Of a stretch of 64,000 bases of DNA, positions 17,120-64,000 are shown piece by piece; position 1 is the stretch's first letter; each line of letters starts with the position of its first letter. The DNA is from a virus (Duplodnaviria; Caudoviricetes), in IMG/VR virus record IMGVR_UViG_3300011152_000015, positions 1-64,000 of that record, one strand, 5' to 3'. The position numbers were made by a program, and so were the translations under genes. Under the pieces are notes generated by a model, which did no database searches, was not told the origin of the DNA, and saw only the letters and a list, made by a program, of their open reading frames with translations.

Positions 17120-17122
17120 GGG

Positions 17123-20563: not shown

Positions 20564-20565
20564 GG

Positions 20566-43838: not shown

Positions 43839-43848
43839 CCTTTTCCCC

Positions 43849-43887: not shown

Positions 43888-43943
43888 GCCCCTGAAAAAA
43901 TGGGCAAAAACAGGCGAAAACGAGCAACAATCAGACAGCCGAA

Positions 43944-44063: not shown

Positions 44064-44314
44064 CGCTAAGCCCTTTTATAAAACCTTCCGTGTGCACTGT
44101 GTGTGCAATTTTGCGACCGCTCGTCATACCCTTTACGCGTACCGGCCATACCCTTTTCGTGGCCAAAGCGAAAAATCAGTCCAATCACTAGGTTTGCCAG
44201 GATGAGAAATATGGGTAGTGCCGGTCTGTCCAATACATGGCACTGCAGACATCAGCCCGCACCTTCAAACCGTCCGAAAGCCCCTCTCTGGATCGCACAC
44301 CGTTAAAGCGAATC

Positions 44315-44430
44315 CGCACTCATCGCCTGCGACATCATTCGGTTTCACACTCACCGACTGCGACAAATTTAAAGTTCGCACTCATGGTCTGTGACATCCA
44401 ATACTTGTCGCATTGACACTCTGCGAACTC
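44315..44430 (+). repeat. Four imperfect ~22-bp direct repeats with 31-32 bp period
   Basis: CGCACTCATCGCCTGCGACATC (44315), CACACTCACCGACTGCGACAAA (44346), CGCACTCATGGTCTGTGACATC (44377), CGCATTGACACTCTGCGAACTC (44409). Confidence 0.75.
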
Positions 44431-44644
44431 CGCAATATACCGGGTCATTACAGTCACTTTAAATGTCTGGAAAGTCACTCAAGCTGCCTTTTGGGTCACT
44501 TATAGAGTCAGCTCAGTCAATTTTTTTAAATAAACTCTTCCCCCATCACTTGCTCCATAAGCATAATAAAACTGTATCTTGTGGGTGGCCAGTTGTGTCT
44601 ATGATAGACATTTAATGCTGCTCACTCTCCTTCGGAGGTTGCGC

Positions 44645-44968
44645 GTGGAAAATAATAATAAGAAAGGCAGGCCAAGCATTAGTGAATCTGCTCGCCGTAA
44701 CAAACCACTGATTATTCGCCTTAACGACAAAGAGCGCGAGACAATTAAGGCTAAATGCGAAGAGGCAGGCTACCAAGCCGCAGGGGCATTTGTACGGGAC
44801 TTGCTAATAAAGGGTAAGCCAGGCCAAAAGCAACGCATCCCCCTGAGTCACCTCCAGCTTTCATTGGAGCTGCAACGTATCGCGAGACTAATCCAGAAAG
44901 GCAATGACTCAGAACATGTAGTTCGAGAGCTATTCGCACTAAACAATAAGCTTCTAACTGGAGAATAA
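44645..44968 (+). CDS. mobC: MobC-like ribbon-helix-helix relaxosome protein
   Basis: KGRP..RNKPLIIRLNDKERETIKAKC..GAFVRDLL; GGAGG plus GTG start; precedes the relaxase. Confidence 0.75.
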   Translation: MENNNKKGRPSISESARRNKPLIIRLNDKERETIKAKCEEAGYQAAGAFVRDLLIKGKPGQKQRIPLSHLQLSLELQRIARLIQKGNDSEHVVRELFALNNKLLTGE

Positions 44969-44972
44969 TAAT

Positions 44973-46163
44973 ATGATTGGTAAAATCACAGAAAAAGGCA
45001 TCGGCTCGTTTAGAAATCGCATTGAGTACATCTTTGGATTGCGCAAGCATGAGCACGCCCTGACAACAATAAGAACTATCGGACGGAACTGCTTTTCTCC
45101 CGATCCTCTTCGCCATGGCCACGACAAAGACAAGATCGATGTAGAAGGCATGATTGCCGAGTTTGATGCTGTCGAAAAACTTAGGAATAACTCGATCGAC
45201 AGTGACAGAGTTGTAAAGCCCGTCTGGCACGCAATCCTCGCACTGCCCCCAGGAGAGCATCTGGACGACCAGCAATGGCACGAAGCGATCGAGATGTATC
45301 TTGCCGACCTGGGTTTCAGTGACCTGAACAAGTGGGTTGCGGTGCTCCACGGGGACACAGACCACGAGCATGTCCACATCGTAGCTAATCGCATTCGTTT
45401 AGATGAAGAGTTTTCCATGGTCAAGGACTCAAACGAGCGCTCACGCAGCTGCGACAGCACGTCTCGGATTGAGGATCACTTTGGCCTCAGCAAAGCCCCG
45501 GCTCCCACTGAAACCTGGGGAACGGCGATCTCCCGTGCGCAAATTGAAGCCGCTGAGCGCGAAGGAACGATCCCTCTGAAGCACCGCATGATCGCAAAGA
45601 TCGCGGGAGCTGTTGAAGCCACCCAGCAAGCCCAAGGCGACATGTTTATGCTTATCCGCCTACTCCGCAAACAGCAGGTCTACGTTCACTTCACGAAAAA
45701 CCAGGATGGTCAGCCCACCGGCATTGCCTACGAATATGCGGGCAAGATCATATCTGGACGCAAGCTAAAACGCAGCCGCCTCACATTCCAAAAATTAACA
45801 ACCCAGGAGCAAATTTCATATGACCCCGAAACCTTTTGCGATCTTGAGAGAGAAGCTTCTCGAAGAGATAGCGAGCGCGAAGAACGAGTGCGAATCTACT
45901 ACTTGGTTCTCAGAGCCAAAAATAGAAGACCCCTGCGTCTTAGCTTCAAGGCGCGCCAACAAAAAGAGCTCGAAGACACCATTAAATTGATCGTAGCCGC
46001 CATATTAGCTCTGTTTGGAATTCGAGCAAATTGGGAGTTTGAAGACAAAAAGGAAGGCGAGCACTACCACCAGCTCCGGAGCAATTGGGTAACGCTACCT
46101 CAAGCTGAACAGCAACAGGACTTATCAATGGCTTGGGACGACCACAGAGAACTAGCACTTTAA
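44973..46163 (+). CDS. Relaxase / mobilization nuclease (MOBP/VirD2-like)
   Basis: N-terminal Tyr (RIEYI), VWHAILALPPGE, HGDTDHEHVHIVANRI HUH motif. Confidence 0.92.
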   Translation: MIGKITEKGIGSFRNRIEYIFGLRKHEHALTTIRTIGRNCFSPDPLRHGHDKDKIDVEGMIAEFDAVEKLRNNSIDSDRVVKPVWHAILALPPGEHLDDQQWHEAIEMYLADLGFSDLNKWVAVLHGDTDHEHVHIVANRIRLDEEFSMVKDSNERSRSCDSTSRIEDHFGLSKAPAPTETWGTAISRAQIEAAEREGTIPLKHRMIAKIAGAVEATQQAQGDMFMLIRLLRKQQVYVHFTKNQDGQPTGIAYEYAGKIISGRKLKRSRLTFQKLTTQEQISYDPETFCDLEREASRRDSEREERVRIYYLVLRAKNRRPLRLSFKARQQKELEDTIKLIVAAILALFGIRANWEFEDKKEGEHYHQLRSNWVTLPQAEQQQDLSMAWDDHRELAL

Positions 46164-46164
46164 T

Positions 46165-46187
46165 AAAAAAGCCCCGCAGTGCGGGGC
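46165..46187. terminator. Terminator between convergent genes
   Basis: AAAAAAGCCCCGC-AGT-GCGGGGC. Confidence 0.7.
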
Positions 46188-46216
46188 AGATAATAAATAA
46201 CGGAAAATTGCCAGAT

Positions 46217-46663
46217 CTAATCAAACTTCAATATCTGATCTACCAATGTTTCTTCGATTACAGCATTGTAGTTCTTGACTATCCCGCCCTCGCCCACGAG
46301 CAAATATGTCGTGTTAGCAGTGATAAATGAGTTGTTGTTTACAAAAAATCTCAGGTAGCTCGTGATGTATACCTCGCCCAGATCTCTTTGTTTCCGATCC
46401 TCAAGAATTTCCCCGCAGAAGAGTTTGAATGGCTTGACGAGGCTGTAATCGGGTACTGGCGGCCACTCCCACTCATCAAAATCATTTGGGATGACGAACC
46501 AGTCTCGGACAATGGCCATGGACTCAACGCCGGAATCTCGATAAATGACGCGAGCCTGATCTTCGCTCATTCCGCTGTCGATAATGGGGCGCGAGTGCTT
46601 TCGGAGGGCAGCAACTTTTTGCTCTTGATTGCCGCCTGGGTACAGCATAGGTCGCCTTGTCAT
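46217..46663 (-). CDS. Hypothetical protein
   Basis: GGAGGTGA RBS before ATG 46663; TGcTATGAT extended -10 upstream. Confidence 0.7.
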   Translation of the reverse strand: MTRRPMLYPGGNQEQKVAALRKHSRPIIDSGMSEDQARVIYRDSGVESMAIVRDWFVIPNDFDEWEWPPVPDYSLVKPFKLFCGEILEDRKQRDLGEVYITSYLRFFVNNNSFITANTTYLLVGEGGIVKNYNAVIEETLVDQILKFD

Positions 46664-46708
46664 GCTCACCTCCCAAATACTAATCATAGCATTTACTGTG
46701 AGCTGAGC

Positions 46709-49075
46709 TTAAACCGCCACTGGTCTATTCACTTTTACTACGACCGGCACTGACGATACACCGGAAGCATAGGTACTGACCCGAAACTCCAGTTCATCCC
46801 GCAACACCCCTCCATTGCTTGACGCCTCGCCATCAAATCTCCAGCTGTTTCCAGTCAGGTTGTCTGCCTGTCCGACCTTGGCGCCTGCAGACCAAACCCC
46901 AATTGAAACGGAGCCAGCGAAAGCCTGATCACGATCATCCCCATAAAACACGACCGCTTGCTCAGCACCGCTCCGATACCTCCAGGAAACCTCAGCAACC
47001 CCAGAAATCTCCCCACCCCCAACACCATTGACCAAAACCCTCGCTGGCGGAAAAACTTGGTCATTGGTGCCTTTGACGACAAAGCTTTGCTCTGCTGCCT
47101 CGGCTTCGGTTTGGCGGCGTGTCTGGGTTTTGACCAGGGTTTTGAGGTACACAGCGCTGCCGGCGTTGAACTGGCTTTGGGTGATGCCGTGACCTTCGGA
47201 TACCGCCCAGGTTTTGGTACCGACCAGGTGTGCTTTTGCGGTGCTACCGAAGAGAGCGCGGCGGACGTTTTTGAGCTGGGCGGTGGTGCTGGTCAGAATA
47301 GTGAAGGTCTCGTAGGACATCCATTCGCCGTTGATGTACAGGATGCCCAGGGCCTCGCGGTTTTCATTTGTGCTGTAGTTGTCGAGCAGCTCGATCGGGC
47401 CTGAGATGATGGGGCCGGTGGCCAGGGTTGTGGGGCTTGCCGGCAGGGCTTCAGTGAGCTGGAAAACAGGGGTGAATGGGTAGACGCCCTGATCACTCCA
47501 GGACTCTGCGCCTTGCCTGGTGATCAGCTTGTAATCTTGGCCTGCTGGTGGCTGCTCAATTAGGGTCATGAGCGTGCGTGTAAGGCCTGCGGTGGCGTTA
47601 AAGATTGCCGGGGCTTCAACGATTTGGACGTCTGGCGGATCAACAGGCTCAAACGTGGGCTTTGTCCAAGCGTGCTCACCACCGTCGCTGTACACAGTGT
47701 TTTGCACGCCAAAGACGTCTTGGGTGAGTGTAAGCCTGATTGCGCTGTCCAGCATGTTACCGACGTCGACCCCCATTACGCGCATAACAAGGCCTTCGAC
47801 TTGCAGCGGGGGCCAGTCGAGACGGACTACGTCTAGCATCTCGATATCGAACATCGAACGGTTGCACTCAACAATGCAGCTGGCCAGTGGCACGGACAAA
47901 GGCCGAAGCTCACGCTGAGCAATCATCGCGGCCAAGGCCCCCGTCGAAACGCTCATAAAGTCGTAAGTGACGCCGTCCGTATCGCCTTTGTGGATGCGCA
48001 ACCCGAGGTTTTGAGCTGTTGCTGTTCGATCATTAAATCCGTCCGCGATGGACAGGTATTTGACTTTGACTTCGTTTGTCGCGGTATCTAGAGAGCCACG
48101 GTTGAAATTGCTGATGCTCTTGATGTTGCTGGCGTTAAGGACTGGTAAATCAGCAATTGCGTAGTCTTCCCTAGCTAGCTTGAGTTTTAGCTGACCGGTG
48201 GCGGCATCCGTTATTAGCGAGCCGTTTATCACTCTGAGGATGTCATCAATAACGGCTGATGCTGATTTAGCCGAGTCAACCACCCCACTTACGCCGTAAC
48301 CCTCGCCATGCAAAATCTCAGCGCAACTCTCGATGGTACTAACGTCGACCAGCGAGGACGAGATAGAGGCCCCGAATCTCTTATCCGTCAAGAATTCATG
48401 GATGGCATAAGCTGGATTTGCATCGTCTCCAATAATTTCTAAAGCTGTGTTGCCGCCAGGCGACCTAGGGAAGCGACTGCAGACAAAAGAGATCTTGGCC
48501 GGTGTCTCACTATTGCCAATGTAAAAACCTTCCAGAACGGCGTAGCAGAGACCGCGTAGCCCAGCAACGATGTCGATACCAACTACTCGCTGCAGATACT
48601 GATTTGCTAGCTGTGTGAGGCTTCCGCTGTAAAAACGGATTGTTCCAGACACTCCGCCTGAACCATCTTCGCCTCCAAAAAGCTCTGGCTTGTTGATTTG
48701 GATCGCGCCATCCGATATCTGTCCTGACCAAGCCTTGTCGTCATCAAACCAAACTTCTTTGAGCGTTACTCCAGATCCGTGGCAAATACCAAGCTGTACG
48801 CCCATGTAGTACTTGTAACCAACGGTCATTTTTTTTGATGAAAAGCCGGACTTAACTTTTTTGGTGATCGCCTGCGAGCGCAAATCCCCGTACCAAAGTA
48901 CATTGGGCCCACTCAACTTGCGGGTGCCATATAAAACCTGGATTGGGCGTTCAGCTGCTGTTGGGAAAGTAAAGTCTTCGAGCGCTGCAGACTTTCTATC
49001 CTCAATCTTTGGCCCTCTTGACATCATCCATACAGACAAGAGGAACATAACAACGTAGAAAATTGCTAAAACCAT
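46709..49075 (-). CDS. Tail tip / central tail protein (D3112/GTA-like)
   Basis: LEDFTFPTA..GPNVLWYGD, VGYKYYMG, INKPELFGG, DANPAY, VRRALFGS. Confidence 0.85.
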   Translation of the reverse strand: MVLAIFYVVMFLLSVWMMSRGPKIEDRKSAALEDFTFPTAAERPIQVLYGTRKLSGPNVLWYGDLRSQAITKKVKSGFSSKKMTVGYKYYMGVQLGICHGSGVTLKEVWFDDDKAWSGQISDGAIQINKPELFGGEDGSGGVSGTIRFYSGSLTQLANQYLQRVVGIDIVAGLRGLCYAVLEGFYIGNSETPAKISFVCSRFPRSPGGNTALEIIGDDANPAYAIHEFLTDKRFGASISSSLVDVSTIESCAEILHGEGYGVSGVVDSAKSASAVIDDILRVINGSLITDAATGQLKLKLAREDYAIADLPVLNASNIKSISNFNRGSLDTATNEVKVKYLSIADGFNDRTATAQNLGLRIHKGDTDGVTYDFMSVSTGALAAMIAQRELRPLSVPLASCIVECNRSMFDIEMLDVVRLDWPPLQVEGLVMRVMGVDVGNMLDSAIRLTLTQDVFGVQNTVYSDGGEHAWTKPTFEPVDPPDVQIVEAPAIFNATAGLTRTLMTLIEQPPAGQDYKLITRQGAESWSDQGVYPFTPVFQLTEALPASPTTLATGPIISGPIELLDNYSTNENREALGILYINGEWMSYETFTILTSTTAQLKNVRRALFGSTAKAHLVGTKTWAVSEGHGITQSQFNAGSAVYLKTLVKTQTRRQTEAEAAEQSFVVKGTNDQVFPPARVLVNGVGGGEISGVAEVSWRYRSGAEQAVVFYGDDRDQAFAGSVSIGVWSAGAKVGQADNLTGNSWRFDGEASSNGGVLRDELEFRVSTYASGVSSVPVVVKVNRPVAV

Positions 49076-49094
49076 TTTGTTCTTCTTATTGTTT

Positions 49095-49895
49095 TTATAT
49101 GAACGGGTTTTGTTCTGGGATCGTCAAGCAGCCTGAGAAGTTCTCAAAATTATTAAAGGAGTGACAGGCACTTGATGAGCGATCACAGCCTTTTGCTAAT
49201 TTGACCGAGCTACCAGCTTTGAGGGAATCGATACCCGAAATTAGAGTAATGCTCTTTTCGGCAGCATTTGCTTCCAAAATCATCCTATGGTCAGTTTCGT
49301 CAAACGAACAAAGTCCCGCCAGATAGTACTCGGGATCATGATCCAAACTGGTAAGATAGATTTTAGCCCCACCGCCCTCCACTTTGATTACCGTTTGTGT
49401 TTCCTGATAGTTTGTAATATCAAGGCTACACATATCGTCATACAGGTGGTGGTTGCATTGACTATGATATCCAAACCTCAGAATTTGACGTCTAACCAGC
49501 GCGCTTGAGGGGTTGCAGGTGAGAGTTGCAATCGAGTTATTCCACGCTACAGCACTTACTTCGCCGCCAAAAACGTTAACAAAAAGGTTTTTGTTGTCGC
49601 GCTGACTTCGGAACACTTTGAGAGTTACGTGCTTCGCAGGGAGGTGTGAGCGAAACAGCAGAGGGACAGGGCTGTCGCCAGGAAGGTCGATGTCGAGGCG
49701 ATTTTTGTAGTCTTCAGCAGTGCGCTGCACCTTCCCACGCTTAATGGCAATCGGCTGGTAAACGATGCCGTCTGTGTGCAAGTGCTGACGAGTGCCAGAG
49801 GTGTAGGCAAAGTATTGCGATCCGAACTCAAAAAGATAGAGCTCAACGGGCTTATTGAGAGATAGCGACCTCTCTATCGATTTCAGAGTCAACAT
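49095..49895 (-). CDS. Phage BR0599-family baseplate hub protein
   Basis: PVELYLF, QCNHHLYD..C, GCDRS..C..FNN..NFSG..IP..NPF. Confidence 0.88.
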   Translation of the reverse strand: MLTLKSIERSLSLNKPVELYLFEFGSQYFAYTSGTRQHLHTDGIVYQPIAIKRGKVQRTAEDYKNRLDIDLPGDSPVPLLFRSHLPAKHVTLKVFRSQRDNKNLFVNVFGGEVSAVAWNNSIATLTCNPSSALVRRQILRFGYHSQCNHHLYDDMCSLDITNYQETQTVIKVEGGGAKIYLTSLDHDPEYYLAGLCSFDETDHRMILEANAAEKSITLISGIDSLKAGSSVKLAKGCDRSSSACHSFNNFENFSGCLTIPEQNPFI

Positions 49896-51534
49896 ACAGG
49901 AGCTGCTTTATTATTTTAGTTATCGAGCTGTCTACAGGCGTATCGAAGATGTAATTAAACTCATCGGATTCGAAACGCCCCAAAAATAGTGGTGCTATAT
50001 ACTCAACGTCATCTTTATTAATATTTTCGACTGATTCGCGAAGCGTAATTACTTCAGTTTCCTCTAGTCCTTCTTCCACGGATTTGACATTTCGGTATAG
50101 CACAGTCCCATTATACAAGTGAATCGAGATAGCGGGTGCGAATGTACGGGATTTCAGGAAGTTTTTGTAGTTTGCCCTGTTGATAGTGATATCTAGTGTT
50201 GCAGGGCCAATGTCTTTTGCTAATTTCATAGCAGTGAGCGGGCTCTCGATATAAAACTCACCTTGACTGCCGCGCTCAAGGGCGGAAAAGAACTCAAAGC
50301 GCTGGCGATCATACTCTGTAAAAAAACGCCAAGAATATTGCAGGTATTTAACTGCTCCAGAAGTGCGGTCATAAATGTGACGTCTCCCGATGCCGGGGTC
50401 GAGTGTTTCCCGTAACCGCTTGTACTGAATAGTGCAATCTTTTGACCGATCAGCTCTCACATCCAGCACTCGGCGAGAGTTAAAAATGACAAAGTCATCA
50501 ATCGGCGCTGGTGGCTCTACCACATCAAAATCAAAAGATGCCGATGTAAGCTCGACGTCTAAGCCATGAGCAATTGAATTCGCCTCGTCGCTTATCCATG
50601 CTGAGTGAATGGGCACAAGGCGGGAACCGATACGGTAGTTTTTCTTAACCAATTCTTTAAAAGAAACGCCCTCCTCAGAAATCGCATCAATCACAGCAAT
50701 CTCCCATGCGTCACCATCACTCAACATGACTCTGCTACCTGGCGTAACCACTGCACTTAAATTCAAGACAAAAGCCTTGGCATCAAACCTCGACACTGGA
50801 GCGATAAGCTCGGACTGCATTGGCCATACCGGTACCAAAAATTGACCAGAAAAATTCCCTACCAAGCTTCCAAACAGGTATTGGTCAGCATCACTGAGCC
50901 CGTATTGGTACGTAGCCGAGAGCCGGGGTTGGTCGCGAAGAGAGATCCGCTGCTCAGATCCATCCCAAGACTCAATGACTTCCGTGAGGTAGCTTTGCCG
51001 GAGTTCCGGTTGCATGCTCCAGTCGATCGGCCAATGCACGACAAGAGCCAGGCTAGCGGTAAACTTAAAGTCGTAGCTTCCTGCAGCCCCAAAATCAAAG
51101 GTCGCTCGGTAAGCGACATCGCCGCTATTTTGGTTAAGAGAAACTTGGTATGTGGACGGCACAAAGGAAAACACTGAGCCAGATCTATCGCCCGCCAGAT
51201 CTACAGCCTCACCCCCGAACTCCTCAACCCCATGCAGCCCCAAGCTCGATCGATACGAGTGCCAAACTGCAAACTCAAACGTCTCGCCACCAGTAACCAG
51301 CCCAGCATCGATCACAGCTGGCGTGATAAATACATTGTCAAAAAATACATCACCCCAACCACCTGCCTGCAGCCCACCGATGCTCAAATCCAGCCCGCTG
51401 TAGCCTACATACCCATAACCACCGCGAATCATTTTGCGAGCAAAGACAGGCTCAGGCACGAGCTCAAAGTCGTACCCGCAATATCCTGATTCCTTTGCCT
51501 GGATGACCTGGAATTTGGCTGCGATCTTAGACAT
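49852..51534 (-). CDS. Virion structural (distal tail) protein
   Basis: TEVIESWDGSEQRISLRDQPR motif; located before the BR0599 gene. Confidence 0.75.
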   Translation of the reverse strand: MSKIAAKFQVIQAKESGYCGYDFELVPEPVFARKMIRGGYGYVGYSGLDLSIGGLQAGGWGDVFFDNVFITPAVIDAGLVTGGETFEFAVWHSYRSSLGLHGVEEFGGEAVDLAGDRSGSVFSFVPSTYQVSLNQNSGDVAYRATFDFGAAGSYDFKFTASLALVVHWPIDWSMQPELRQSYLTEVIESWDGSEQRISLRDQPRLSATYQYGLSDADQYLFGSLVGNFSGQFLVPVWPMQSELIAPVSRFDAKAFVLNLSAVVTPGSRVMLSDGDAWEIAVIDAISEEGVSFKELVKKNYRIGSRLVPIHSAWISDEANSIAHGLDVELTSASFDFDVVEPPAPIDDFVIFNSRRVLDVRADRSKDCTIQYKRLRETLDPGIGRRHIYDRTSGAVKYLQYSWRFFTEYDRQRFEFFSALERGSQGEFYIESPLTAMKLAKDIGPATLDITINRANYKNFLKSRTFAPAISIHLYNGTVLYRNVKSVEEGLEETEVITLRESVENINKDDVEYIAPLFLGRFESDEFNYIFDTPVDSSITKIIKQLLYVDSEIDREVAISQ

Positions 51535-52471
51535 CGACTTTCACCGCGAACCCTAAACCGAAGTACGGCTGGATGCGGACAGCCGGGATTTCTTTGCCAA
51601 AAAAGGGAAAAATCTTGAACGTCTGGTCACCGACTACGTAGTCCTGGCCCGCAGTCATCAGGTCGCAATTCACAAAGTGCAGGTCATCAAATTCCGCAAA
51701 TGGAGACCAAGCACTTTCATTTTTGACATACAAGTAGATCGGCATTAGAGCCGACATGCCGTTTAATCGATTCGAGCTGCGCGCACTGCTGCCAATTGTC
51801 CCGACCTGTCCAGGGGATGATGGGCTGAAATTGGGCACCCGCACGCCATTGCTAGCTGATAACCCAGATGCATAACCCCTCGTTTCAGAGTCTTGGTATG
51901 AGTACAGCCAGCCGCTGTAATCCGCCTTCGAAACCCACAGTGAAGTGACTGCCCCAGAGTGATCGAAAGGCACTGACTTTCCATCCCCGCTCGCGTACTC
52001 CATTCCCGTGAGCACACTGCCGCCTGCACCAGGAACCACGACCGGCGAATCCCCGAAAAACGCATGGCTATACCGACCATTTTCAAATTCCGAGATCAGC
52101 AACACGCGCTCATCTGCAGTGAACAGATGATATGTCCCTGCCGCCCCGGCTCGAACGTACCGACCATTGTTGGAGTAACCAGGCTGCTGAAACCAAGCCA
52201 GCGAGGCTTCGAACCCAGTGCTGATCCGCATATCGATACCAGATTTCCCGTATCCGCTGCTCCAGCTCGGCCCCGTTGGGTTGAAGTCGTCGAAGCTACG
52301 CAGAGCGATGTATGTGGCCCCTTTGTGTAAGTGCAGCCGCTTCCCAAAACGTGTGTCAGCGCTGTCGACGTATGCGTGTAAATCAACCACCCAGCCCTCG
52401 GCAAAGAGCTTCTCTCTCACCAGCTGCAGGAGGTTTTCGGAGCCCGCAAACGAGCCAGTTTGATATTTCAT
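51527..52471 (-). CDS. Virion structural protein
   Basis: MKYQTGS start; apparent paralogue of the neighbouring gene. Confidence 0.75.
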   Translation of the reverse strand: MKYQTGSFAGSENLLQLVREKLFAEGWVVDLHAYVDSADTRFGKRLHLHKGATYIALRSFDDFNPTGPSWSSGYGKSGIDMRISTGFEASLAWFQQPGYSNNGRYVRAGAAGTYHLFTADERVLLISEFENGRYSHAFFGDSPVVVPGAGGSVLTGMEYASGDGKSVPFDHSGAVTSLWVSKADYSGWLYSYQDSETRGYASGLSASNGVRVPNFSPSSPGQVGTIGSSARSSNRLNGMSALMPIYLYVKNESAWSPFAEFDDLHFVNCDLMTAGQDYVVGDQTFKIFPFFGKEIPAVRIQPYFGLGFAVKVDV

Positions 52472-53340: not shown

Positions 53341-53378
53341 GTTGTTATTCTTATCGGCCTTTTTATTTATTATAGCAC

Positions 53379-56174: not shown

Positions 56175-56192
56175 GTTTTGTTCTTCTTATTA

Positions 56193-56531
56193 TTATTGGC
56201 TTAGCTGATCAATCAGAGTCTTAAACTCTTTGCCATCCCCAGTGGCAACTGCAATGCGGGACATATGATCAGCGATGATCTTTGTCACCATCTGATCCCG
56301 TATCCTCTCTTTATTCACTTCAGCGAGGTGTAGCAGGCGCTTAATAGAGTACAAATACGGATTTGAATGCCCGCAAGATACAAGGAGCTCGCAACACTCA
56401 ATTAGTACAAGGCCAAACTGCTCAGGGTCTTGTTCCTCTGTCGACGCACTCTTTTTCCTGCTGGCCTCGAATTGCTTTACTTTTTGATCAGCGGTAAGAG
56501 TATCGGCACCAGTTTTTCCAGACTTTTTTTT
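56193..56531 (-). CDS. Frameshift extension of tail assembly chaperone (gpT-like), absent from the ORF track
   Basis: The -1 frame is open from an A8 run (56524-56531) to TAA 56193: KSGKTGADT...ELLVSCGHSNPYLYSIKR...FKTLIDQLSQ. Confidence 0.75.
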   Translation of the reverse strand, partial: KKKSGKTGADTLTADQKVKQFEASRKKSASTEEQDPEQFGLVLIECCELLVSCGHSNPYLYSIKRLLHLAEVNKERIRDQMVTKIIADHMSRIAVATGDGKEFKTLIDQLSQ

Positions 56532-56884
56532 AGCCCGTCAGGGAAAGTCAAAGAGAATACTGTTGCGAGTAATTCCAGCTGGATAGGGAAAGGCAAGTTC
56601 TGGATATACCCTTCAGCATCGCGCTGCTTACAAGCGCAGGCAACACAAGCAGCCGCAAAACCCGGAAAGCTCAGAAGCACCGTTTTGGAAACATCGGGGT
56701 CAGCCAACGACTCCTTGGCATTACTTAAAAAGATAGCCGCAAGCGCAGTGCGATAGCCGTCAGCAAGGTAAACAAAATCCTCTGTATTAAGACCAAACAC
56801 ATCAATCGTCACCTCGGGCTTGTCGGCAGACGCTTGTGTAATTGTGATGGGACGTGACGGGATGACGAGATCAGAGAGTGCCAT
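56477..56884 (-). CDS. Tail assembly chaperone (pre-tape-measure protein)
   Basis: LPFPIQLELL..LTFPDGLKK; located before the tape measure. Confidence 0.82.
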   Translation of the reverse strand: MALSDLVIPSRPITITQASADKPEVTIDVFGLNTEDFVYLADGYRTALAAIFLSNAKESLADPDVSKTVLLSFPGFAAACVACACKQRDAEGYIQNLPFPIQLELLATVFSLTFPDGLKKSLEKLVPILLPLIKK

Positions 56885-57087
56885 TTTTTATTCTTATTAT
56901 AAGGCTTTTAACTATTATACCGAACCCCGCGACCCCCGTGAGACAAAACCAGTTTGACAACAAAAATAATCGAGGCAGAACAATATTCGCTGCATACCTC
57001 AACTCTCTTCGTTGTCTACTATCGCGATATGGTACTCAGCAGTAATATTGAAACTGTAGCTACACACAACAATAAGAGAGCAGAAAA

Positions 57088-57276
57088 ATGATTACTACAT
57101 CCAAAACAATAGGCGGCATTGCCCTTGAGCTAGCCTACAGCTCAGCAACAGCCGACATGACTCAGTTTATAGAGGAAGTAGCCAGTGAATTGGATCAAAA
57201 AGGCTTTTCGTTATCAGAGTCAGAGCTCGTTAGCCTCTGCAACGAAGTTTGCCATCTTGCGATGGAGGCAGCGTAA
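57088..57276 (+). CDS. Small acidic hypothetical protein (inverted moron, gene 1)
   Basis: 62 aa, TAATG coupling to the next gene. Confidence 0.65.
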   Translation: MITTSKTIGGIALELAYSSATADMTQFIEEVASELDQKGFSLSESELVSLCNEVCHLAMEAA

Positions 57277-57614
57277 TGTTTGATCCACGCACTGATTTGC
57301 CACTGAGCCCTAACGACACCAACTTTGAAGAGATGAGCTACAAACAGCTTATGGACAAGCTGAGCGCTGAATACATTCAAATTCGCACGCCCGGCACGCC
57401 TGAAAACATCGCTTTTGAGCGCAAACAAATTGATGAGTTGGCGGACTTTATTGAGGCGAATCTGTTAGATGAACTGGCGGATCAGGGGTGTGTTGAGGGA
57501 TTTAGGCTGCTTGCGATTGCCGGGCTGCGAAGGGATTTCAAAGGGCTTGAGCGCTACAATAACGGCGTGCGGCATGCGGCTTGTAGCCAGGTTTGGTACA
57601 AGTACAATCACTGA
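57276..57614 (+). CDS. Hypothetical protein (inverted moron, gene 2)
   Basis: GGAGG RBS, start MFDPRTD. Confidence 0.7.
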   Translation: MFDPRTDLPLSPNDTNFEEMSYKQLMDKLSAEYIQIRTPGTPENIAFERKQIDELADFIEANLLDELADQGCVEGFRLLAIAGLRRDFKGLERYNNGVRHAACSQVWYKYNH

Positions 57615-57625
57615 TCAGCAGCGAT

Positions 57626-57658
57626 AAAAAAACCGGCCACCTGGGCCGGCTTTTGTTT
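57626..57658. terminator. Bidirectional terminator
   Basis: A8-CCGGCC-N6-GGCCGG-CTTTTGTTT between convergent genes. Confidence 0.75.
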
Positions 57659-57675
57659 GCCATCAAAATGCTTTG

Positions 57676-58449
57676 TTAGGCAATTTCAACGTGCTCTTCC
57701 TTAAAATACCTCGAAAGTCCGGTGCCTGTCACATGCCTTGCGAGCTGTAGAGTACCTTTGAGCTCCATCTCGCCAAAGTCGCTACCAATCAACTGTCTTT
57801 GCGATAGGGGTGAAAGGCTAACGTTGTACATTGTCACTTTTACTGGAGTGTTTTCGTAAGCAAAGTTGCGACCGTCAAAAACAATGCAAAGTTCGACGTC
57901 CCCAGTAGTCAGCGCTTCGACTCGCTTAGTCGCAGACGTGGAATAAGTTACAGTGACCTCCGTGCCGTCCTCTATGCTAGTGGTTTCTGGAAAGTAGATA
58001 TGGCCATCACTCACCATATAATCTTCACCTTCAACAAGCGCTAGGCCGTCCGCCTCAATTGACTCGACAGAGGCAATAACACCATCAGGCACTATCGATT
58101 TGCCCTTGTAAGCCAGATCCGTAAAGATTTTACCGGTTGCAGCAGCGTCTCTGACTACAGTGCCACTTGTGCCTCGCGCTACGTTTTCGGGGCTTAACGA
58201 TTTTAGATTAAGAGTTACTTCGACAGTCGTCTTAACCGTTTTGGACATCACCACGCCCATAGTGCCTGACATCGTATCTTGCATCTCAACTTTGTCGTTT
58301 GTGATCGAAAAAGACGCGCTGCTCAGCATGCCTAAGTTAGCAAATCCTCCGACAGGCTTTCCGGTAGTTTTCGAAACTAGGGATGCGATAGCGGCACCAT
58401 TCCCTACATAGCCGATTGTGTCCGTTGGGGAATTGAATCCAATTGCCAT
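57676..58449 (-). CDS. Major tail tube protein
   Basis: Start MAIGFN; YVGNG, LKSLSPENVA, FDGRNFA, LIGSDFGEMELKG. Confidence 0.82.
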   Translation of the reverse strand: MAIGFNSPTDTIGYVGNGAAIASLVSKTTGKPVGGFANLGMLSSASFSITNDKVEMQDTMSGTMGVVMSKTVKTTVEVTLNLKSLSPENVARGTSGTVVRDAAATGKIFTDLAYKGKSIVPDGVIASVESIEADGLALVEGEDYMVSDGHIYFPETTSIEDGTEVTVTYSTSATKRVEALTTGDVELCIVFDGRNFAYENTPVKVTMYNVSLSPLSQRQLIGSDFGEMELKGTLQLARHVTGTGLSRYFKEEHVEIA

Positions 58450-58499
58450 TGTTTTCACCTTTATTATTATTTTTGTTGGTGTTTTTTGTTTTGTTAGGA

Positions 58500-58940
58500 T
58501 CAGCCGAAGTAGATCCAGTGAGTCCATGCCAGTTGCCAGGCACTATGATTGTTGTTCGCCGATTCAAAGCCTGACAAAAGCTCTTCAAATGAAACTATTT
58601 GCGGAAGATTTGGGTTTATTTTTGGATTGCCGCGATGCACTGCCAGGGCGTTAGAGATTTCGATACCCAGATCCATTGCGGCCCTGGAAACACCCTTAGT
58701 GTCCTGATCGGATCGACAGATGATAAATGCTCCAAATACCGCGTCACATACAAGCTTTGGCCCTTTACTAACTATTGGCCCACCACCGCACGCAAGCAAG
58801 ACACTCGGCCTTCCGCCATCCAGAGTAATGTTTTTAAGCGTTTTGTCGGCTACGGTGCCAGAGAACAAGTCGACCTTCGGCTTTGATGGCAAAGATTCGA
58901 TCAGGGTTTTGTAGTCTTCAAGGGTTTGTGTGATTGACAT
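58500..58940 (-). CDS. Tail terminator-like protein (Mu gp37 position)
   Basis: RPSVLLAC...AWQLAW; position. Confidence 0.6.
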   Translation of the reverse strand: MSITQTLEDYKTLIESLPSKPKVDLFSGTVADKTLKNITLDGGRPSVLLACGGGPIVSKGPKLVCDAVFGAFIICRSDQDTKGVSRAAMDLGIEISNALAVHRGNPKINPNLPQIVSFEELLSGFESANNNHSAWQLAWTHWIYFG

Positions 58941-58957
58941 AAGTGTTTTTGTTTTAA

Positions 58958-59416
58958 TTATAACACTTGAGCAGTTGGGGTTATGGCTTTATCGATACTT
59001 TCGACAAGTATTTTTTGGTATTCGTCAAGCCAGGCTTTCGGGAGTCCCGATTTGTCTGGAAGAAACCGTCTTTGTTTTACGCTAATGCCATACTGATGGT
59101 TATCTGCATATATTAGGTTGCTTGCTAATTCCAGGTTTGTTCCTCGCACGTTATGTTTGACGCTATTCCGCAGCCGGCCTGTGTCAAGTAGGGGCTGGCC
59201 CTGCCTGTGAGTGATTGGGGCCCAGCGGTTGCCATAGGGGTCTACTCCGCGTTGAAAGCATTGTTTGATCTTTGCGACCCACCTGACCCCAATTGTGTTG
59301 AGGCCTTTACGGACGTGGGGGTTGTTCGGGCCGAGCTGGCGTACACGGCGGACGAGCTCTTCGAGGCCCCTGGTGTCGACCTGGAGCGTTATTGGCTGGC
59401 TTCCGCTTGTGATCAT
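58958..59416 (-). CDS. Phage virion morphogenesis protein (Mu gpG-like)
   Basis: DPYGNRWAP, LLDTGRLRNS, YADNHQYG, RRFLP. Confidence 0.88.
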   Translation of the reverse strand: MITSGSQPITLQVDTRGLEELVRRVRQLGPNNPHVRKGLNTIGVRWVAKIKQCFQRGVDPYGNRWAPITHRQGQPLLDTGRLRNSVKHNVRGTNLELASNLIYADNHQYGISVKQRRFLPDKSGLPKAWLDEYQKILVESIDKAITPTAQVL

Positions 59417-59778
59417 GAGCGAATGAGACGCACGTTGTGGAATCCGGACTTACGGGACTCCTGGGTCGACGTACGAAGGCGGTTGCGGCCACTAGCAAGG
59501 CCCTCCAGCCAACGGACAGCGTCTTCAAAACGCCTCCTCTGCTCATCTGTTGGGTTTTCATTCCACAAGTAGTATCGAGAGATGTCCAACACGTGGCCTT
59601 TAATGTCTTCGATCGCTTCCTGGTCAATCAGTGGTGAGCTGAGGCCACCGGCTCTGATGTAGCTGTCAGCCAGCCGCGATGCCTTCTCGATTGCCCTGAT
59701 GATTCTGGCTTCACCGTCATCATTAGGGATCTGATCGTTTTTGAATTCTTGGGTGTATTGCTCGTAGGTTGAGTACAT
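59413..59778 (-). CDS. Mu gp36-like head-tail adaptor
   Basis: MYST, AIEKASRLADSYI, DISRYYL, FEDAVRWLEGLASG. Confidence 0.85.
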   Translation of the reverse strand: MYSTYEQYTQEFKNDQIPNDDGEARIIRAIEKASRLADSYIRAGGLSSPLIDQEAIEDIKGHVLDISRYYLWNENPTDEQRRRFEDAVRWLEGLASGRNRLRTSTQESRKSGFHNVRLIRS

Positions 59779-59914
59779 AGTTTTTCTTAACCAATCTTCT
59801 TATTGTTATGTCTCCCCTCCAGGATCTTTACCCTCAACGGTCATTTCCTTTTTAAAAGAGAAAGATACCGTTGCGGGTGGAAAGCCAAAAATCTTTGGTT
59901 AAGAGAAACGCTTT

Positions 59915-60859
59915 TTAGGAAAGTGATAAACCTTGCAACTGACTCAGTGGGATTACGTGAGTCGAGTCTTGATCAACGAATCCGTCCAGTGGCATCCCCT
60001 TTTTCCACATCCTGTGTCTAGTCGCACCTAAAATCTTTATCTGATCGTCTTCATCAAGCGATTTCAGATGCTCGTCGAAACTGTCAGGCACTGGATCATC
60101 GTCGTCAAAAATCGCGATCATTGTGGTACGGCATCCTGGATGGAACGGAGGCACTTTCTTTTTCGGGTCGCTGACCTTGAATTTCTTTCCGTTCTGGGAT
60201 GCACAAGTCAGTGTTGTTCGCGTGTCCAAGATCGCACTGAGTTGGTACATCTCGACGCCGGCCTCCTGAAACCCCAGCAGATCTGCATTGGCTGTCACAT
60301 GAGCCGCAGCCGTCCGCACCAATATCTCGATATTTCTACGCGAGGCATTAAACGGATTGACCGGATCTGACACCACAGCATCAACGATTTTGCTCACAGG
60401 CAGCCCGTTAACCACTCCTAACCGCACCGCCCTCTTAACAGCATTCTGCGTGGCCAAGCTCTGCTCGCTGACCCACTCCCGGAGCAATTTGCCATCAAAG
60501 GGATCACTTTCAATAAAAGACCGGATGAAGTCCTCGGACGTCTGCGCACCACCCAGATCAACCTCAAGCGCATCCCCCACCCAATCGGCCTCAGCTTTGT
60601 ACAGCTGCTCAAGCTCGTCGACGAGATCGCGCTCCATTGCGCTGTACTGATCGCTGATTGCTCGATCGATCTTGTCGAGCTTTCTCCTTAGCTTGTACAC
60701 ACTCAGGATCGCACCGCGCTTTACGTCCGCCTGTAGCTCTTCGGCTACCTGAGTCTTCAGTTGCTGCAACTGTGCTACAGCCCCACGGGCAATTCGGGTG
60801 TACTGCCCCCGCAACTGGATCTGCCTGCCGATCGCCTTCTTTGCAGTGAGCTTTGCCAT
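59915..60859 (-). CDS. Head morphogenesis / minor capsid protein (Mu F / SPP1 gp7 family)
   Basis: LVRTA, AILDTRTTLTC, PPFHPGCRTT. Confidence 0.9.
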   Translation of the reverse strand: MAKLTAKKAIGRQIQLRGQYTRIARGAVAQLQQLKTQVAEELQADVKRGAILSVYKLRRKLDKIDRAISDQYSAMERDLVDELEQLYKAEADWVGDALEVDLGGAQTSEDFIRSFIESDPFDGKLLREWVSEQSLATQNAVKRAVRLGVVNGLPVSKIVDAVVSDPVNPFNASRRNIEILVRTAAAHVTANADLLGFQEAGVEMYQLSAILDTRTTLTCASQNGKKFKVSDPKKKVPPFHPGCRTTMIAIFDDDDPVPDSFDEHLKSLDEDDQIKILGATRHRMWKKGMPLDGFVDQDSTHVIPLSQLQGLSLS

Positions 60860-61350
60860 CAGGCTACCCAGAGCTCAGCTTCAGCCCGGCGTCTCTTTAC
60901 AAGCCCCGGAAGCTTCACACCCTTGGCGTAGACCCACCTCATGAGCTGCCCAGGCACAGCCCCAAAATCACCCCGGTTAATCACTCGCCTAAGCGTCGAA
61001 ACCTCGAAATTCCCGGCGCCACAGTTGTAAACAAAGTCGATCAGCGCAGCCAGCTGATTGGCATTGAGCTTGATCTTTACTAGCCTCAAAACCGCATTTG
61101 CAGCCTTCATCAGATCAGCCCTAAGCAACGCTTCCGCACGCTCCATACTGATAGCTGGAAACTGACTCAGCGGAGCCCAAGCTTTGCGCGACAGCAAGTG
61201 CCCATACCCAATTGTTGGAAGGCCAACAGGATCGTGGTAAGGCTCGATCTCCGGTGTACGGCGATCCGGGTCATGCAACCCGTCGAACTCCGGACGACTG
61301 ACCAGCTTGGCCGCGATCTCAATCGCTTGCTCTAGCACAGACCTAGTCAT
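60859..61350 (-). CDS. Lysozyme (GH24 endolysin)
   Basis: YHDPVGLPTIGYGH, ALIDFVYNCG, LPGLVKRRRAE. Confidence 0.93.
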   Translation of the reverse strand: MTRSVLEQAIEIAAKLVSRPEFDGLHDPDRRTPEIEPYHDPVGLPTIGYGHLLSRKAWAPLSQFPAISMERAEALLRADLMKAANAVLRLVKIKLNANQLAALIDFVYNCGAGNFEVSTLRRVINRGDFGAVPGQLMRWVYAKGVKLPGLVKRRRAEAELWVA

Positions 61351-61875
61351 TTACTTGGCCTGCAGATGACGCTGGAGTACTCGACCACCGAACCAAAAGC
61401 TGATGACGGCAGCGAGCATGGCCTCATCAAATTCAGTCCAACTGCCCTTTAACGCCTCGAACCCCGTAAGCCCAGCAGCCTCCAACGCATGAAAAACGGC
61501 AACCTTGTAGCCCATGTAAAACACGACCAAGGCATAGGTAATCAGCGGTCGGCACATCCGGATAACAAAGTCGACATGCACTCCCACCAGCGCCACGTAC
61601 GCCTTTACCCACCCAGGCAAACTCCCACCACCGACCGACGTAATTAGCTTGTCCGCGTAACTCTCTTCCGGACGATGTACTGCGATCGCTTCCTCTATAT
61701 CAGCGCGAGCATTAATTTCTTCCAACCGCCACATATGCTCAGAAGCAGCAGATTCCATTCGCAGTTTCATTAATTCCATTTCTTGCTTGTGGTCTTGCTT
61801 GGCTTGAAATAGATCAAAGACTTTGGGAACAAACGGCCCCAAAAACCCGAAAAAAGCACTTATCATCGCGATCAT
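61351..61875 (-). CDS. Holin-like membrane protein (3TM type)
   Basis: RPLITYALVVFY...ISFWFGGR; next to the lysozyme. Confidence 0.65.
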   Translation of the reverse strand: MIAMISAFFGFLGPFVPKVFDLFQAKQDHKQEMELMKLRMESAASEHMWRLEEINARADIEEAIAVHRPEESYADKLITSVGGGSLPGWVKAYVALVGVHVDFVIRMCRPLITYALVVFYMGYKVAVFHALEAAGLTGFEALKGSWTEFDEAMLAAVISFWFGGRVLQRHLQAK

Positions 61876-62147
61876 TTGGACACCCCTTTTACAATCAAGG
61901 CATCGATGCGCGAGCTGATTCTATCGAGCTTTTCCTCAATGCGGATCGTGCTTTCTTTTCTTTCAATTTGATACGACTGAATCTGAGCTGAAACAATATC
62001 AACACGCTGATCAAGTAGCTCAATCTTCTTGTCTAAACCCGAATAAGCCCAAACGCCACTTACTACTAGCGACAGTAGTGGTATGACTGCGTATAGGGAA
62101 ATAACGAGGCTGCTGGCGTTAGTGGGCGCCGGAGGGGTTGCTGACAT
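61872..62147 (-). CDS. Small TM plus coiled-coil protein in the lysis cluster
   Basis: One TM helix, then RIEEKLDRI. Confidence 0.7.
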   Translation of the reverse strand: MSATPPAPTNASSLVISLYAVIPLLSLVVSGVWAYSGLDKKIELLDQRVDIVSAQIQSYQIERKESTIRIEEKLDRISSRIDALIVKGVSK

Positions 62148-62252
62148 TATTGTTCTTCTTATTATTGTTATTGTCAGAAGGGCTCTATGGCCAATGACTT
62201 ATTATAACATGCGTTACTTTTGCAATGTGGCGAGTACATGCATAAAGTTTAT

Positions 62253-62636
62253 TTACCAGGGCTTTTGCGGCCAAATAACCAATGCTGGATCTGCTGCAAG
62301 CGTAATGTCTCGAAGGGCTTGGCGGTATTCTGCAATAGCCCTCAAGCGCGCTGGATCTGCTGTCGTTTGGGTGATCCGAGCCTCGTCATAGACAATGTTT
62401 AGAGCATAGTCAGCGTCGATTAGCAGCTCATCGCGGCGGGCTCTGATCATCTCCCAAGCTGCCGCTCTGTCTTGTTCCCAAACCAGCTCGCCGGCTACGA
62501 CACGCGGGACAAGGCCCAGGTTGAGCTGTTCCAGGTAGTCTTGGAGGTCTGGGATTTCAAGGCTTGGGAGGTTGGCCAGGCCAGATGTAGTGAGCGCGGT
62601 TACGTATCCAGTGCTCTCGTTGTATGAGATTCTCAT
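62253..62636 (-). CDS. Tail fibre assembly chaperone
   Basis: IRARRDELL...YRQALRDIT...WPQKP. Confidence 0.85.
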   Translation of the reverse strand: MRISYNESTGYVTALTTSGLANLPSLEIPDLQDYLEQLNLGLVPRVVAGELVWEQDRAAAWEMIRARRDELLIDADYALNIVYDEARITQTTADPARLRAIAEYRQALRDITLAADPALVIWPQKPW

Positions 62637-63883
62637 GTCTTAATGTACGCCTTTAAGCCAGCGACCCCGCTGTTGATTTTAGGAGTGCGGAAGACGATGT
62701 CGCTCGGAAAATTCATGGCGTTGTTTTGTATTGCGCCTGATTGCCCGTTTACTGACCCTGCTGTTCCAGCGCCGCCGCATATCACTAGCTCACCAGCAGT
62801 GTGGTCGTAGTCAACACCGCGATAGCTCGACATCTCTGGAACATTTTCCCATGTAGCTCCGCCATCAAAACTCATAGCAGGACGACTGCCGTTTAAAACA
62901 ACAAAGCTTGAACCGTGCGCAACCCCAGTGTAAAAGCCGGAGGGAAAAACTATGCTAACAAACGTGTCGTCCTCAGCGTTTAATCTGTACTCAAGATTCC
63001 CACTACCGAAAAACAAATAGTTAGATTTTCCGCCAACCAATCGCACAAGCGCACCCTCTACAACAAGCTCAGAAACTACAGAGTTGGCACTAAGCGTCAG
63101 TTTGTGCAGTCCCCGGACTCCGTCAATCGTCCCCACAAAATAGGTATTTCCGTTTTCGGCCTGCACAGCCCAAGCAGCCGTATTTCCCTGCGCGTCCAAT
63201 GCTCCGATCGAGACGCCCTGATTTACTGACGTTGTGTCGTACTTAATCAATAAAACCCCTGTCGATGTTTTAACAAATACAACATCGACGACTGGACTGA
63301 TCGAGATCGCACCCAAAACATCAACCAGACCGCTTGCAGTCCAAATGGCAGTTGCTAATCCCTGATGATCGACAAAATATACCGACTCCGACCCTGTGGA
63401 CTTGCGCTCTTTAAAGTAAATGCCGCGTTCGGTTTTAAATACAGATGTGTTGATAGTGCTGTAATAGCTGATTGAGGAGCTCAGCACGTTGTCGACGTAA
63501 ATACGCATGTAGCCAGATTCACTTGCGACTTTAACCCGCCCCAACTGCTTAATGTTGTAGGTAAGAGTCGAGCCGAACCGAGTCCCGCTATTGGCGTTTA
63601 TGGAGATCGGAGTGGTACCAAAAGCCCCGATATTAAGCTTGCCTGCCAACACAGGGAAATCAGCCGTGGGCCTTAGCTTTCCATCACACTCCAAAGCATC
63701 CGGGTACGACCAGTTTGGCCGCAAAACGATATCCCCAACTTGCAGGCCCTCGCCAGTCGTGATCAGGCCAGCGAACTCACTCAGGGTCAGTGCCTGTGAG
63801 CTTCCTGGCTTGTGCACGTGCATCCGCATCGAGGGGTCACCGCCCCAGCTGGGCAGATCAGAAATTGTCTTCTTGGAACTCAT
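62633..63883 (-). CDS. Tail fibre protein with collar-like domain
   Basis: VGDIV..LECDG..DFPVL N-terminal motif, beta-rich body, FRTP..KAYIK end. Confidence 0.8.
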   Translation of the reverse strand: MSSKKTISDLPSWGGDPSMRMHVHKPGSSQALTLSEFAGLITTGEGLQVGDIVLRPNWSYPDALECDGKLRPTADFPVLAGKLNIGAFGTTPISINANSGTRFGSTLTYNIKQLGRVKVASESGYMRIYVDNVLSSSISYYSTINTSVFKTERGIYFKERKSTGSESVYFVDHQGLATAIWTASGLVDVLGAISISPVVDVVFVKTSTGVLLIKYDTTSVNQGVSIGALDAQGNTAAWAVQAENGNTYFVGTIDGVRGLHKLTLSANSVVSELVVEGALVRLVGGKSNYLFFGSGNLEYRLNAEDDTFVSIVFPSGFYTGVAHGSSFVVLNGSRPAMSFDGGATWENVPEMSSYRGVDYDHTAGELVICGGAGTAGSVNGQSGAIQNNAMNFPSDIVFRTPKINSGVAGLKAYIKT

Positions 63884-64000
63884 AACTCAGTAACTCAAGT
63901 TCGTCAGTATGCTCGCCAGTGAACGACCCTGGAGTCATTTCAAACAGGACGGCATCGACAGGAATTGATTCAAATAGGTGTGCTTGCTTCGGCGCCAAGC
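63858..64000 (-). CDS. 3' end of an upstream gene (truncated by the window)
   Basis: Open frame LAPKQAHLFESIPVDAVLFEMTPGSFTGEHTDELELLSYEFQEDNF*. Confidence 0.5.
   Translation of the reverse strand, partial: LAPKQAHLFESIPVDAVLFEMTPGSFTGEHTDELELLSYEFQEDNF

Follow-up and report, generated by a model that had tools for sequence, protein, structure and literature searches.

Integrative mobilizable elements (IMEs) of the iMOB type, which encode their own relaxase, have been reviewed (PMC5704250, PMC11389934). In another group of elements, those with a DusA-associated integrase, the integrase gene borders on dusA at its 5′ end, and a substitute 5′ end for dusA is provided by the element (Farrugia et al. 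2015, PMC4482086), and dusA-targeting islands of Vibrio can be mobilized by IncC plasmids (PMC8409611). Phage-plasmids of the P1, N15 and SSU5 types are extrachromosomal (PMC7969092), and none is known to be conjugative (PMC12282955). Tandems of a phage and an integrative and conjugative element (ICE) have been described in Streptococcus, where the relaxase and the type IV secretion system (T4SS) come from the neighboring ICE and the arrangement is explicitly not a hybrid (Sci Adv 2026, PMC13651849). According to a 2025 review, no integrated prophage is known to be conjugative, and mobilization of prophages has been reported only via neighboring ICEs (PMC12282955). Here we analyze a Pseudomonas-type prophage that carries a mobC–relaxase cassette of its own. 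It lies in a window of 64,000 nt (the whole stretch of DNA analyzed), which is the first 64 kb of a 91,188-bp IMG/VR provirus record (IMGVR_UViG_3300011152_000015). Within the literature collection searched, full-text queries returned no description of a tailed prophage with its own MobC–relaxase cassette.

Two prophages stand in tandem at dusA across the 91-kb contig, prophage A on the left and prophage B on the right. GC content is 60–69% up to ∼44.0 kb and 44–58% from there to the contig end, an inserted IS66 element excepted. On sequence grounds, we identify the right-hand region of the window as the end proximal to the attachment (att) site of a ∼50-kb temperate siphovirus-type prophage, B, inserted in the 5′ end of dusA behind A. 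Here mobC (44645–44968, plus strand) and a relaxase gene (44973–46163, plus strand) converge on an unbroken block of tail, neck, lysis and fiber genes, as the first-pass annotation of the window had it. That annotation also held the two gene sets to be similar in composition, and they are: mobC and the relaxase gene have 46 and 51% GC, compared to 48–54% for the tail genes and 61–65% left of 44.0 kb. The composition of the cassette thus matches phage B rather than the host or prophage A. We are highly confident, from the comparison of relatives below, that selection maintains the cassette as an integral and fixed component of a lineage of dusA-integrating Pseudomonas siphophages. That it mediates helper-dependent mobilization, in trans, of the excised phage or its defective derivatives is a prediction to which we give an even chance.

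B resembles the iMOB IMEs in having an integrase and att sites, a relaxase with an accessory protein and a presumed origin of transfer (oriT), no mating-pore genes and a predicted dependence on a helper T4SS. Unlike those elements, which are non-viral, it encodes head, tail, packaging, lysis and replication genes over ∼50 kb. The iMOB layout is seen in the att-bounded relative of B in Pseudomonas shirazensis, which contains both integrase and relaxase genes, and in the contig, which contains no gene for a type IV coupling protein (T4CP) or VirB4; the origin is a candidate only. With the DusA-associated-integrase elements B shares insertion at the dusA 5′ end, an integrase divergent from dusA and a replacement 5′ end, and this architecture of 5′-end insertion, adjacent integrase and replaced 5′ end is found both in the window and in P. 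shirazensis. The paper describing these elements (PMC4482086) mentions no relaxase, whereas B carries one. The dusA elements of Vibrio offer a precedent for mobilization, but they are islands, not phages. In common with the phage–ICE tandems, B shows accretion at a shared att site and, by our prediction, a prophage leaving the cell via a conjugation apparatus; the difference is that the relaxosome genes are inside phage B, with no adjacent ICE. B is not a phage–ICE tandem, as the 91-kb contig contains neither a T4SS nor a coupling protein: profile searches for T4CP (PF02534, PF12696) and VirB4 (PF03135) found none, extending to the whole contig what had been noted for the window. Lacking its own T4CP and VirB4, the element would need a helper to be present for transfer. 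Finally, like phage-plasmids, B joins phage and plasmid-derived functions in one element; unlike them, it integrates in the chromosome and carries mobilization rather than partition genes.

The product of mobC is a NikA-like ribbon-helix-helix relaxosome accessory protein of 107 aa (PF21983, 32 bits), whose start, the GTG at 44645, was set by alignment. The adjacent gene encodes a 396-aa HUH relaxase with a MobA/VirD2 nuclease domain, scoring 81.3 bits against PF03432 (curated threshold 24.6). Its N-terminus, MIGKI...RIEYIFG, bears Tyr19 in the position of the catalytic tyrosine, which is placed ahead of a cluster of three histidines, HGDTDHEHVH, with the H-x-D...H-x-H pattern of a metal site. 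Tyr19 is invariant in 13 elements and conserved in at least 90% of 36 diverse homologues, an alignment that reaches down to 24% identity, and H126, H133 and H135 are invariant. An AlphaFold2 model of the protein has a predicted local distance difference test (pLDDT) score of 84.7. Fold searches with residues 1–195 retrieved MobM (Z 12.0, root-mean-square deviation 3.6, 175 aligned residues), MobA of R1162 (Z 10.5), NES (Z 9.7) and TraI/TrwC (Z about 9), with relaxases in all of the top 22 rows; a sequence search of the PDB gave no match. The active site is, as far as sequence can tell, intact, and nicking at a cognate oriT is predicted. We classify the enzyme from its sequence as a divergent MOBP-like relaxase, nearest TraI/MobA(P) by profile without being a member of that family. 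The nuclease domain is followed by a conserved helix-plus-sheet domain (residues 200–300, window 45570–45872) modeled at pLDDT >90, which may bind DNA or contact the coupling protein, and the last 90 residues are variable. The cassette as a whole resembles those of MOBP/MOBQ plasmids (Serratia plasmid NZ_OW967880 and cyanobacterial plasmids) in its mobC–relaxase order, overlapping or adjacent stop and start codons, PF03432 nuclease domain and upstream cis region. It differs from them in the sequence of the relaxase, which is 28–32% identical over the first ∼285 residues only.

As HUH relaxases and Rep initiators share fold and chemistry, the enzyme could conceivably serve as a rolling-circle type initiator or single-strand nickase in phage replication, recombination or packaging. 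A circularly permuted viral Rep domain (7kik) does appear in the fold search, at Z 7.2, although below the relaxases. A relaxase is indicated by the order of the motifs, by the NikA-like partner and by the best structural matches. Moreover, the phage owns helicase/primase-type replication genes and a packaging terminase, TerL, and derivatives without virion or packaging genes retain the cassette. Given the separate replication module, with its helicase, the relaxase is not needed as a replication initiator, and we consider such a role improbable.

The proximity of relaxase and virion genes is by no means confined to this contig. Five viral contigs and two Pseudomonas genomes contain relatives of the relaxase at 81–85% identity, and ten viral contigs contain relatives of the tail-tip protein; in all nine of the informative relatives found via the tail protein, the relaxase gene follows the tail end. 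Altogether, we count at least 13 independent elements, distributed over many Pseudomonas species, in which mobC and the relaxase gene have the same tail-tip genes as neighbors. A distant subclade (P. putida CP022561, P. kurunegalensis CP167171), with relaxase 56–57% and tail protein ∼50% identical, has the order att, NikA-like gene, relaxase gene, 4–5 kb of variable cargo, tail tip. Pairwise identities of the relaxase and the tail protein are correlated over 13 elements (r = 0.94; Mantel 0/5000), and the relaxase is full length in 13 of 13. Median ratios of nonsynonymous to synonymous substitution (dN/dS), which are approximate with dS near saturation, are 0.12 for the relaxase and 0.08 for mobC, compared to 0.07 and 0.05 for tail proteins. 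These data bear out the linkage proposed by the first-pass annotation: the two gene sets co-occur, co-diverge and are under purifying selection.

Clustering at 90% identity gives at least 120 relaxase clusters that are at least 53% identical to the relaxase in the window, and their hosts include P. putida, P. aeruginosa, P. chlororaphis, P. brenneri, P. lurida, Stutzerimonas and others. The relaxase clade stands apart when clustering is done at 50%, E ≤ 1e-30 being reached by only 19 clusters. A megablast search of 44000–64000 against phage and plasmid records returned nothing, and tblastn of the relaxase against 50,697 phage records returned only five weak matches (unannotated gut contigs and one Salmonella record), which makes such relaxases a near-absence among phage records. 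A viral structure library held one relaxase match, from an uncultured virome contig. Among cultured phages, even the closest show no more than 31–33% identity in their portal and tail-tip proteins.

The left boundary of prophage B is the att core TTCAGCGTGGCGCCGATGATGGA (44001–44023, plus strand), which is shared with relatives and corresponds to a 23-bp repeat in P. shirazensis. A truncated dusA 5′ end (43950–44063, plus strand), identified by a six-frame motif search and compared with the intact DusA of P. shirazensis, adjoins the start of an integrase gene on the right and then runs into unrelated residues and a stop codon. Its sequence identifies this fragment as the replacement 5′ end supplied by prophage A. 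The att site of the window is accordingly read as a hybrid, with its left arm from A and its right, P′ arm (TGGGATCGAC...) from B, which means that B integrated behind an earlier arrival, using its att site on the dusA side. The core with its TGGGATCGAC continuation is present left of mobC in loci L005–L009, L025, L027, L032 and L034–L037, and the junction of dusA fragment, core and P′ arm occupies that position in the window and in eleven other loci. Paired GTGTGCAC / GTGTGCAAT repeats (44090–44108, plus strand), conserved in att-adjacent loci, are candidate arm-type integrase sites of B's attP. In the contig the pair is found at this place only, and the same motif occurs on the integrase-side arm in P. 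shirazensis.

P. shirazensis (G002) provides a complete host genome with an intact, low-GC prophage, and the synteny of this prophage with B extends from mobC across the tail, head, portal and TerL genes to the helicase gene. The element measures 49.5 kb and is bounded by the 23-bp att repeat, with mobC, the relaxase gene, the whole virion set and an integrase gene inside. One copy of the core (TTCAGCGTTGCACCCATGATGGA) is located 700 bp left of mobC and the other in dusA at the codons for RFSVAPMMD, and paired GTGTGCA repeats are present on both arms. The element's own integrase gene is at the far end and diverges from dusA, which is intact and has received an AT-rich 5′ end from the phage. 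Since the 23-bp core and the arm repeats enclose them in P. shirazensis, MobC and the relaxase are placed inside the att-bounded prophage. Terminase, portal, major capsid, tail, lysis and replication genes are all found in B itself; the contig stops ∼3 kb before B's own integrase gene, which is seen only in the P. shirazensis element. In P. putida GM4FR (L008) we found a naive single insertion, with genes for a GGDEF protein and Fic and the native dusA 5′ end left of att.

These boundaries bear on the idea that the cassette is a separate small IME trapped between A and B, a functionless remnant or an assembly chimera. dusA is a site where elements pile up, as the tandem here and an integrase remnant left of attL in P. 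shirazensis illustrate, and the lineage could plausibly have arisen when a phage fused with an IME that targets dusA. A trapped element is nonetheless hard to fit to the data. The att core occurs once in the contig, left of mobC, and none lies between the relaxase and tail genes, where the 53 bp contain only a terminator hairpin. The arm repeats by mobC match those by the far-end integrase, and the cassette is present in the naive GM4FR insertion, where host genes immediately adjoin att on the left. A decaying remnant is excluded by conservation and by the dN/dS values, and the same junction is seen in independent assemblies, which speaks against a chimera. We therefore regard these possibilities as very improbable and already largely refuted. 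The claim in the first-pass annotation that no insertion sequence (IS) or att break separates the cassette from the virion genes holds for the junction itself, and no hidden att divides the two; an att core does lie left of mobC, outside the pair, and an IS66 element further right. The annotation had overlooked the tandem arrangement, the dusA att site and the fact that the integrase gene in the window belongs to prophage A. We also considered as an att pair a 16-bp direct repeat at 44026 and 69094 (within umuC), and rejected it as chance, the flanks being unrelated.

Between att and mobC lies a region with several conserved elements. Degenerate direct repeats (TCGCACTC...CTGCGACA, with a period of ∼31 bp, followed by GTCACT/GGCACT repeats) span 44300–44530 (plus strand) in a seven-locus alignment, and the same seven loci conserve a predicted promoter-like element, TTGACA-17 nt-TATACC (44413–44441, plus strand). 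Immediately upstream of mobC, a block of 58 nt (44587–44644, plus strand) is near-invariant in the seven loci, where the coding flanks are only 70–80% identical. It contains a perfect 7-bp inverted repeat, TGTCTAT-G-ATAGACA (44596–44610), followed by TTTAATGCTGCTCAC and a small hairpin. In the distant subclade (L035) the palindrome reads TGTCTGA-G-TCAGACA, such that both arms are altered with pairing kept, and L034 is intermediate; the downstream GCT(G/A)CTCAC...CCTTCGG...GTTGCG keeps its spacing across these variants. An inverted repeat with the nic site a few bases on is the usual geometry of MOBP/MOBQ origins. By analogy, the 58-nt block is a candidate oriT, possibly doubling as the MobC operator. 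In the two host genomes checked, it occurs once per genome, within the element itself. Where the mob and tail operons converge, a G+C hairpin with a T-run forms the predicted terminator (46171–46187, minus strand).

The cassette sits between the P′ arm and the end of the tail operon, the position of the non-essential b region of lambda. Phages keep lysogenic-conversion and competition genes in such att-adjacent, accessory regions, and relatives of B hold variable cargo and defense genes there. This raises the possibility that the cassette is functional in another way, either nicking or competing for resident conjugative plasmids and ICEs, by way of interference or exclusion, or promoting high-frequency-recombination (Hfr)-like transfer of flanking chromosome from the integrated state. 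Strong purifying selection is compatible with this, since it shows function without showing which. On the other hand, the inverted-repeat block is present only in the element and not in the resident elements of the two genomes checked, making the phage's own DNA the best candidate substrate of the enzyme, and a cis site, an accessory protein and a relaxase together form the standard layout for self-mobilization. We consider these other functions unlikely, though less so than a replication role.

Helper-dependent mobilization would proceed as follows. The integrase would excise the prophage as a circle, on which MobC and the relaxase would form a complex at the oriT block to nick one of the two strands. 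A conjugative plasmid or ICE resident in the same cell would then take over the relaxase–DNA complex with its coupling protein and T4SS. In this way a complete or defective phage genome would enter a new cell without need of the phage receptor and integrate at dusA. The lineage, which is widespread, may thus spread in two ways: in virions, and as single-stranded DNA that the relaxase pilots through the T4SS of a co-resident ICE or plasmid, a proposal that we hold tentatively, at slightly less than even confidence. Taken as a whole, this explanation is the best available, and we judge it somewhat more probable than otherwise. Of the hybrid element put forward in the first-pass annotation, the part that makes the mob genes integral to a phage lineage stands, and the mobilization half remains inferred.

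Decayed derivatives are informative in this regard. In P. putida GM4FR the tail and capsid block is replaced by a gene for an OLD/Gabija-like ATPase-TOPRIM protein and one for a SEC-C protein; the genome has no tail-tip homologue, middle genes of the phage persist and the mob cassette is intact. This derivative looks like a phage turning into a mobilizable defense island. The cassette is likewise intact in L006, which has neither tail tip nor tape measure, and in L036 and L037, which are decayed. Retention of the cassette in defective copies fits a function independent of particles. GM4FR also contains at least two T4CP+VirB4 sets. Cargo around its mob cassette includes genes for a 717-aa SEC-C-motif protein and a DUF2971 protein (L008:6326–8798, 11971–21162). 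A further locus, L004, seems to join a tail assembly gene to TerL, although this is a metagenome contig and the junction could be an assembly artifact.

Several observations weigh against mobilization, or temper the case for it. Transfer, nicking and excision are all predicted from genes. The relaxase falls below the curated cut-off of the NCBIfam TraI/MobA(P) model NF041893 (60.6 versus 250 bits, in the nuclease domain only), and its C-terminal half is without an assigned function, which leaves recognition by a coupling protein conjectural. The candidate oriT had no blastn match among plasmids, and its single-strand folding is unexceptional (z –1.5). In P. shirazensis, which supplies the one complete genome of a host whose prophage is intact, neither T4CP nor VirB4 could be detected. 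A search of sequencing runs found none with more than 8% of the sampled words. Lastly, the co-divergence signal rests on three deep branches, with r only 0.34 in the close clade; this lower value fits mosaic exchange among close relatives.

Downstream of the cassette, the genes of B in the window are on the minus strand. The last gene of the tail operon encodes a DUF6957 protein (46217–46687) and lies in a region that is variable in relatives. It is preceded by genes for a 788-aa Phage-tail_3 host-specificity-like protein (46709–49075), a BR0599-type hub (49095–49895), a phrog_1082 tail assembly protein (49852–51534), two phrog_687 paralogues (51527–53340), the tape measure (53379–56174), a pre-tape-measure chaperone (56477–56884) and an Ig-domain major tail protein (57676–58527). 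The paralogues, annotated as 'structural protein' (314 and 290 aa), sit between the tape measure and the tail assembly protein and diverge at different rates among relatives (59–87% versus 75–90%). The stretch 57676–59778 also holds genes for a 146-aa protein and for the neck/connector proteins, of the Phage_tail_S (58958–59416) and Mu gp36-like (59413–59778) types. Next come a MuF-like head protein (59915–60859), a lysozyme (60859–61350) and, within 59915–62147, two lysis-cassette candidates of 174 and 91 aa, followed by a tail-fiber assembly chaperone (62253–62636) and a 416-aa fiber candidate (62633–63883). The order is unusual and is kept in P. shirazensis, with MuF, the lysis cassette and the fiber and its chaperone between the coat and the head–tail connector genes; portal and terminase are ∼15 kb off, beyond a block of unknown genes.

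Past the window, the right flank supplies the coat, portal, TerL and replication genes for which the first-pass annotation had looked to that side. In contig coordinates, these are a P22-type coat (64696–65859), a DUF4055 portal (78799–80127), TerL (80159–81727) and a helicase (84115–86544, minus strand), along with a scaffold candidate and a Holliday-junction resolvase. The helicase comes closest to CyRepA1, a family of replication proteins from cyanobacterial plasmids, with a score of 161 bits that falls short of the cut-off of 200, and the nearest plasmid relatives of the relaxase are likewise on cyanobacterial plasmids. In the head-gene region, umuDC (S24 peptidase and Y-family polymerase; 68070–69781, plus strand) lies on the opposite strand; as it is absent from the syntenic position in P. 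shirazensis, it is error-prone-repair cargo of this copy. Just upstream of the portal gene is the IS66 element (75232–77248), with tnpB and tnpC, 62% GC and terminal inverted repeats of ∼19 bp. Its insertion between phage genes suggests that this phage copy may be impaired.

Roughly ten B genes (tail-tip, tape measure, chaperone, o91, p687b, scaffold, portal and others) have an A-rich leader of the AATAATAAGAAGAACAA type in place of a clear Shine-Dalgarno site, and genes of prophage A are without it. The first-pass annotation had this leader shared by the mob and virion genes; it does recur among the latter, whereas GGAGAATAATAAT takes this place at the relaxase gene, and the run of A residues at mobC belongs to the coding sequence.

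Prophage A, which is context and outside the hybrid, is a high-GC (60–69%) lambda-like prophage covering 1–42704, with the block extending to ∼44.0 kb. Pfam profiles identify its tape measure (12136–14958), S49 protease (19334–20563), lambda-type portal (20566–22155), gpA terminase (22390–24399) and C5 methylase (40448–42130). A tRNA-Cys(GCA) gene at 8553–8635 (minus strand) could be phage-encoded or a relic attachment site. The tyrosine integrase gene (42705–43985, minus strand; PF00589) is of the dusA-associated type by position and, together with the mimic of the dusA 5′ end, forms the canonical right end of a dusA element, on which basis we assign it to A. We considered and rejected this integrase as B's own: its gene has 61% GC and lies on the opposite side of the att core, and the syntenic P. 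shirazensis prophage has a different integrase at its far end (37% identical). In L006, an A-type integrase (75% identical) is found left of a B-type mob cassette. The end of A, with its C5 methylase and integrase, resembles the description of P. protegens Pf-5 Prophage 03, the Pseudomonas example in PMC4482086. That prophage was rejected as a described relative of B, being P2-like, with 61% GC, and similar to A. A and B are unrelated, two phages that share one attachment hotspot.

Phages and conjugative or mobilizable elements are treated as separate routes of transfer, and classifiers use relaxases as hallmarks of plasmids. If the proposed reading is true, the B lineage would provide the first case of an intact chromosomal prophage family with a demonstrably working relaxosome of its own; the phage would cross receptor barriers, and its defective copies would persist as mobilizable islands. 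If the cassette works, phage cargo (umuDC here, defense genes elsewhere) could move by conjugation. Whatever its purpose, a conserved relaxase in a phage calls for explanation.

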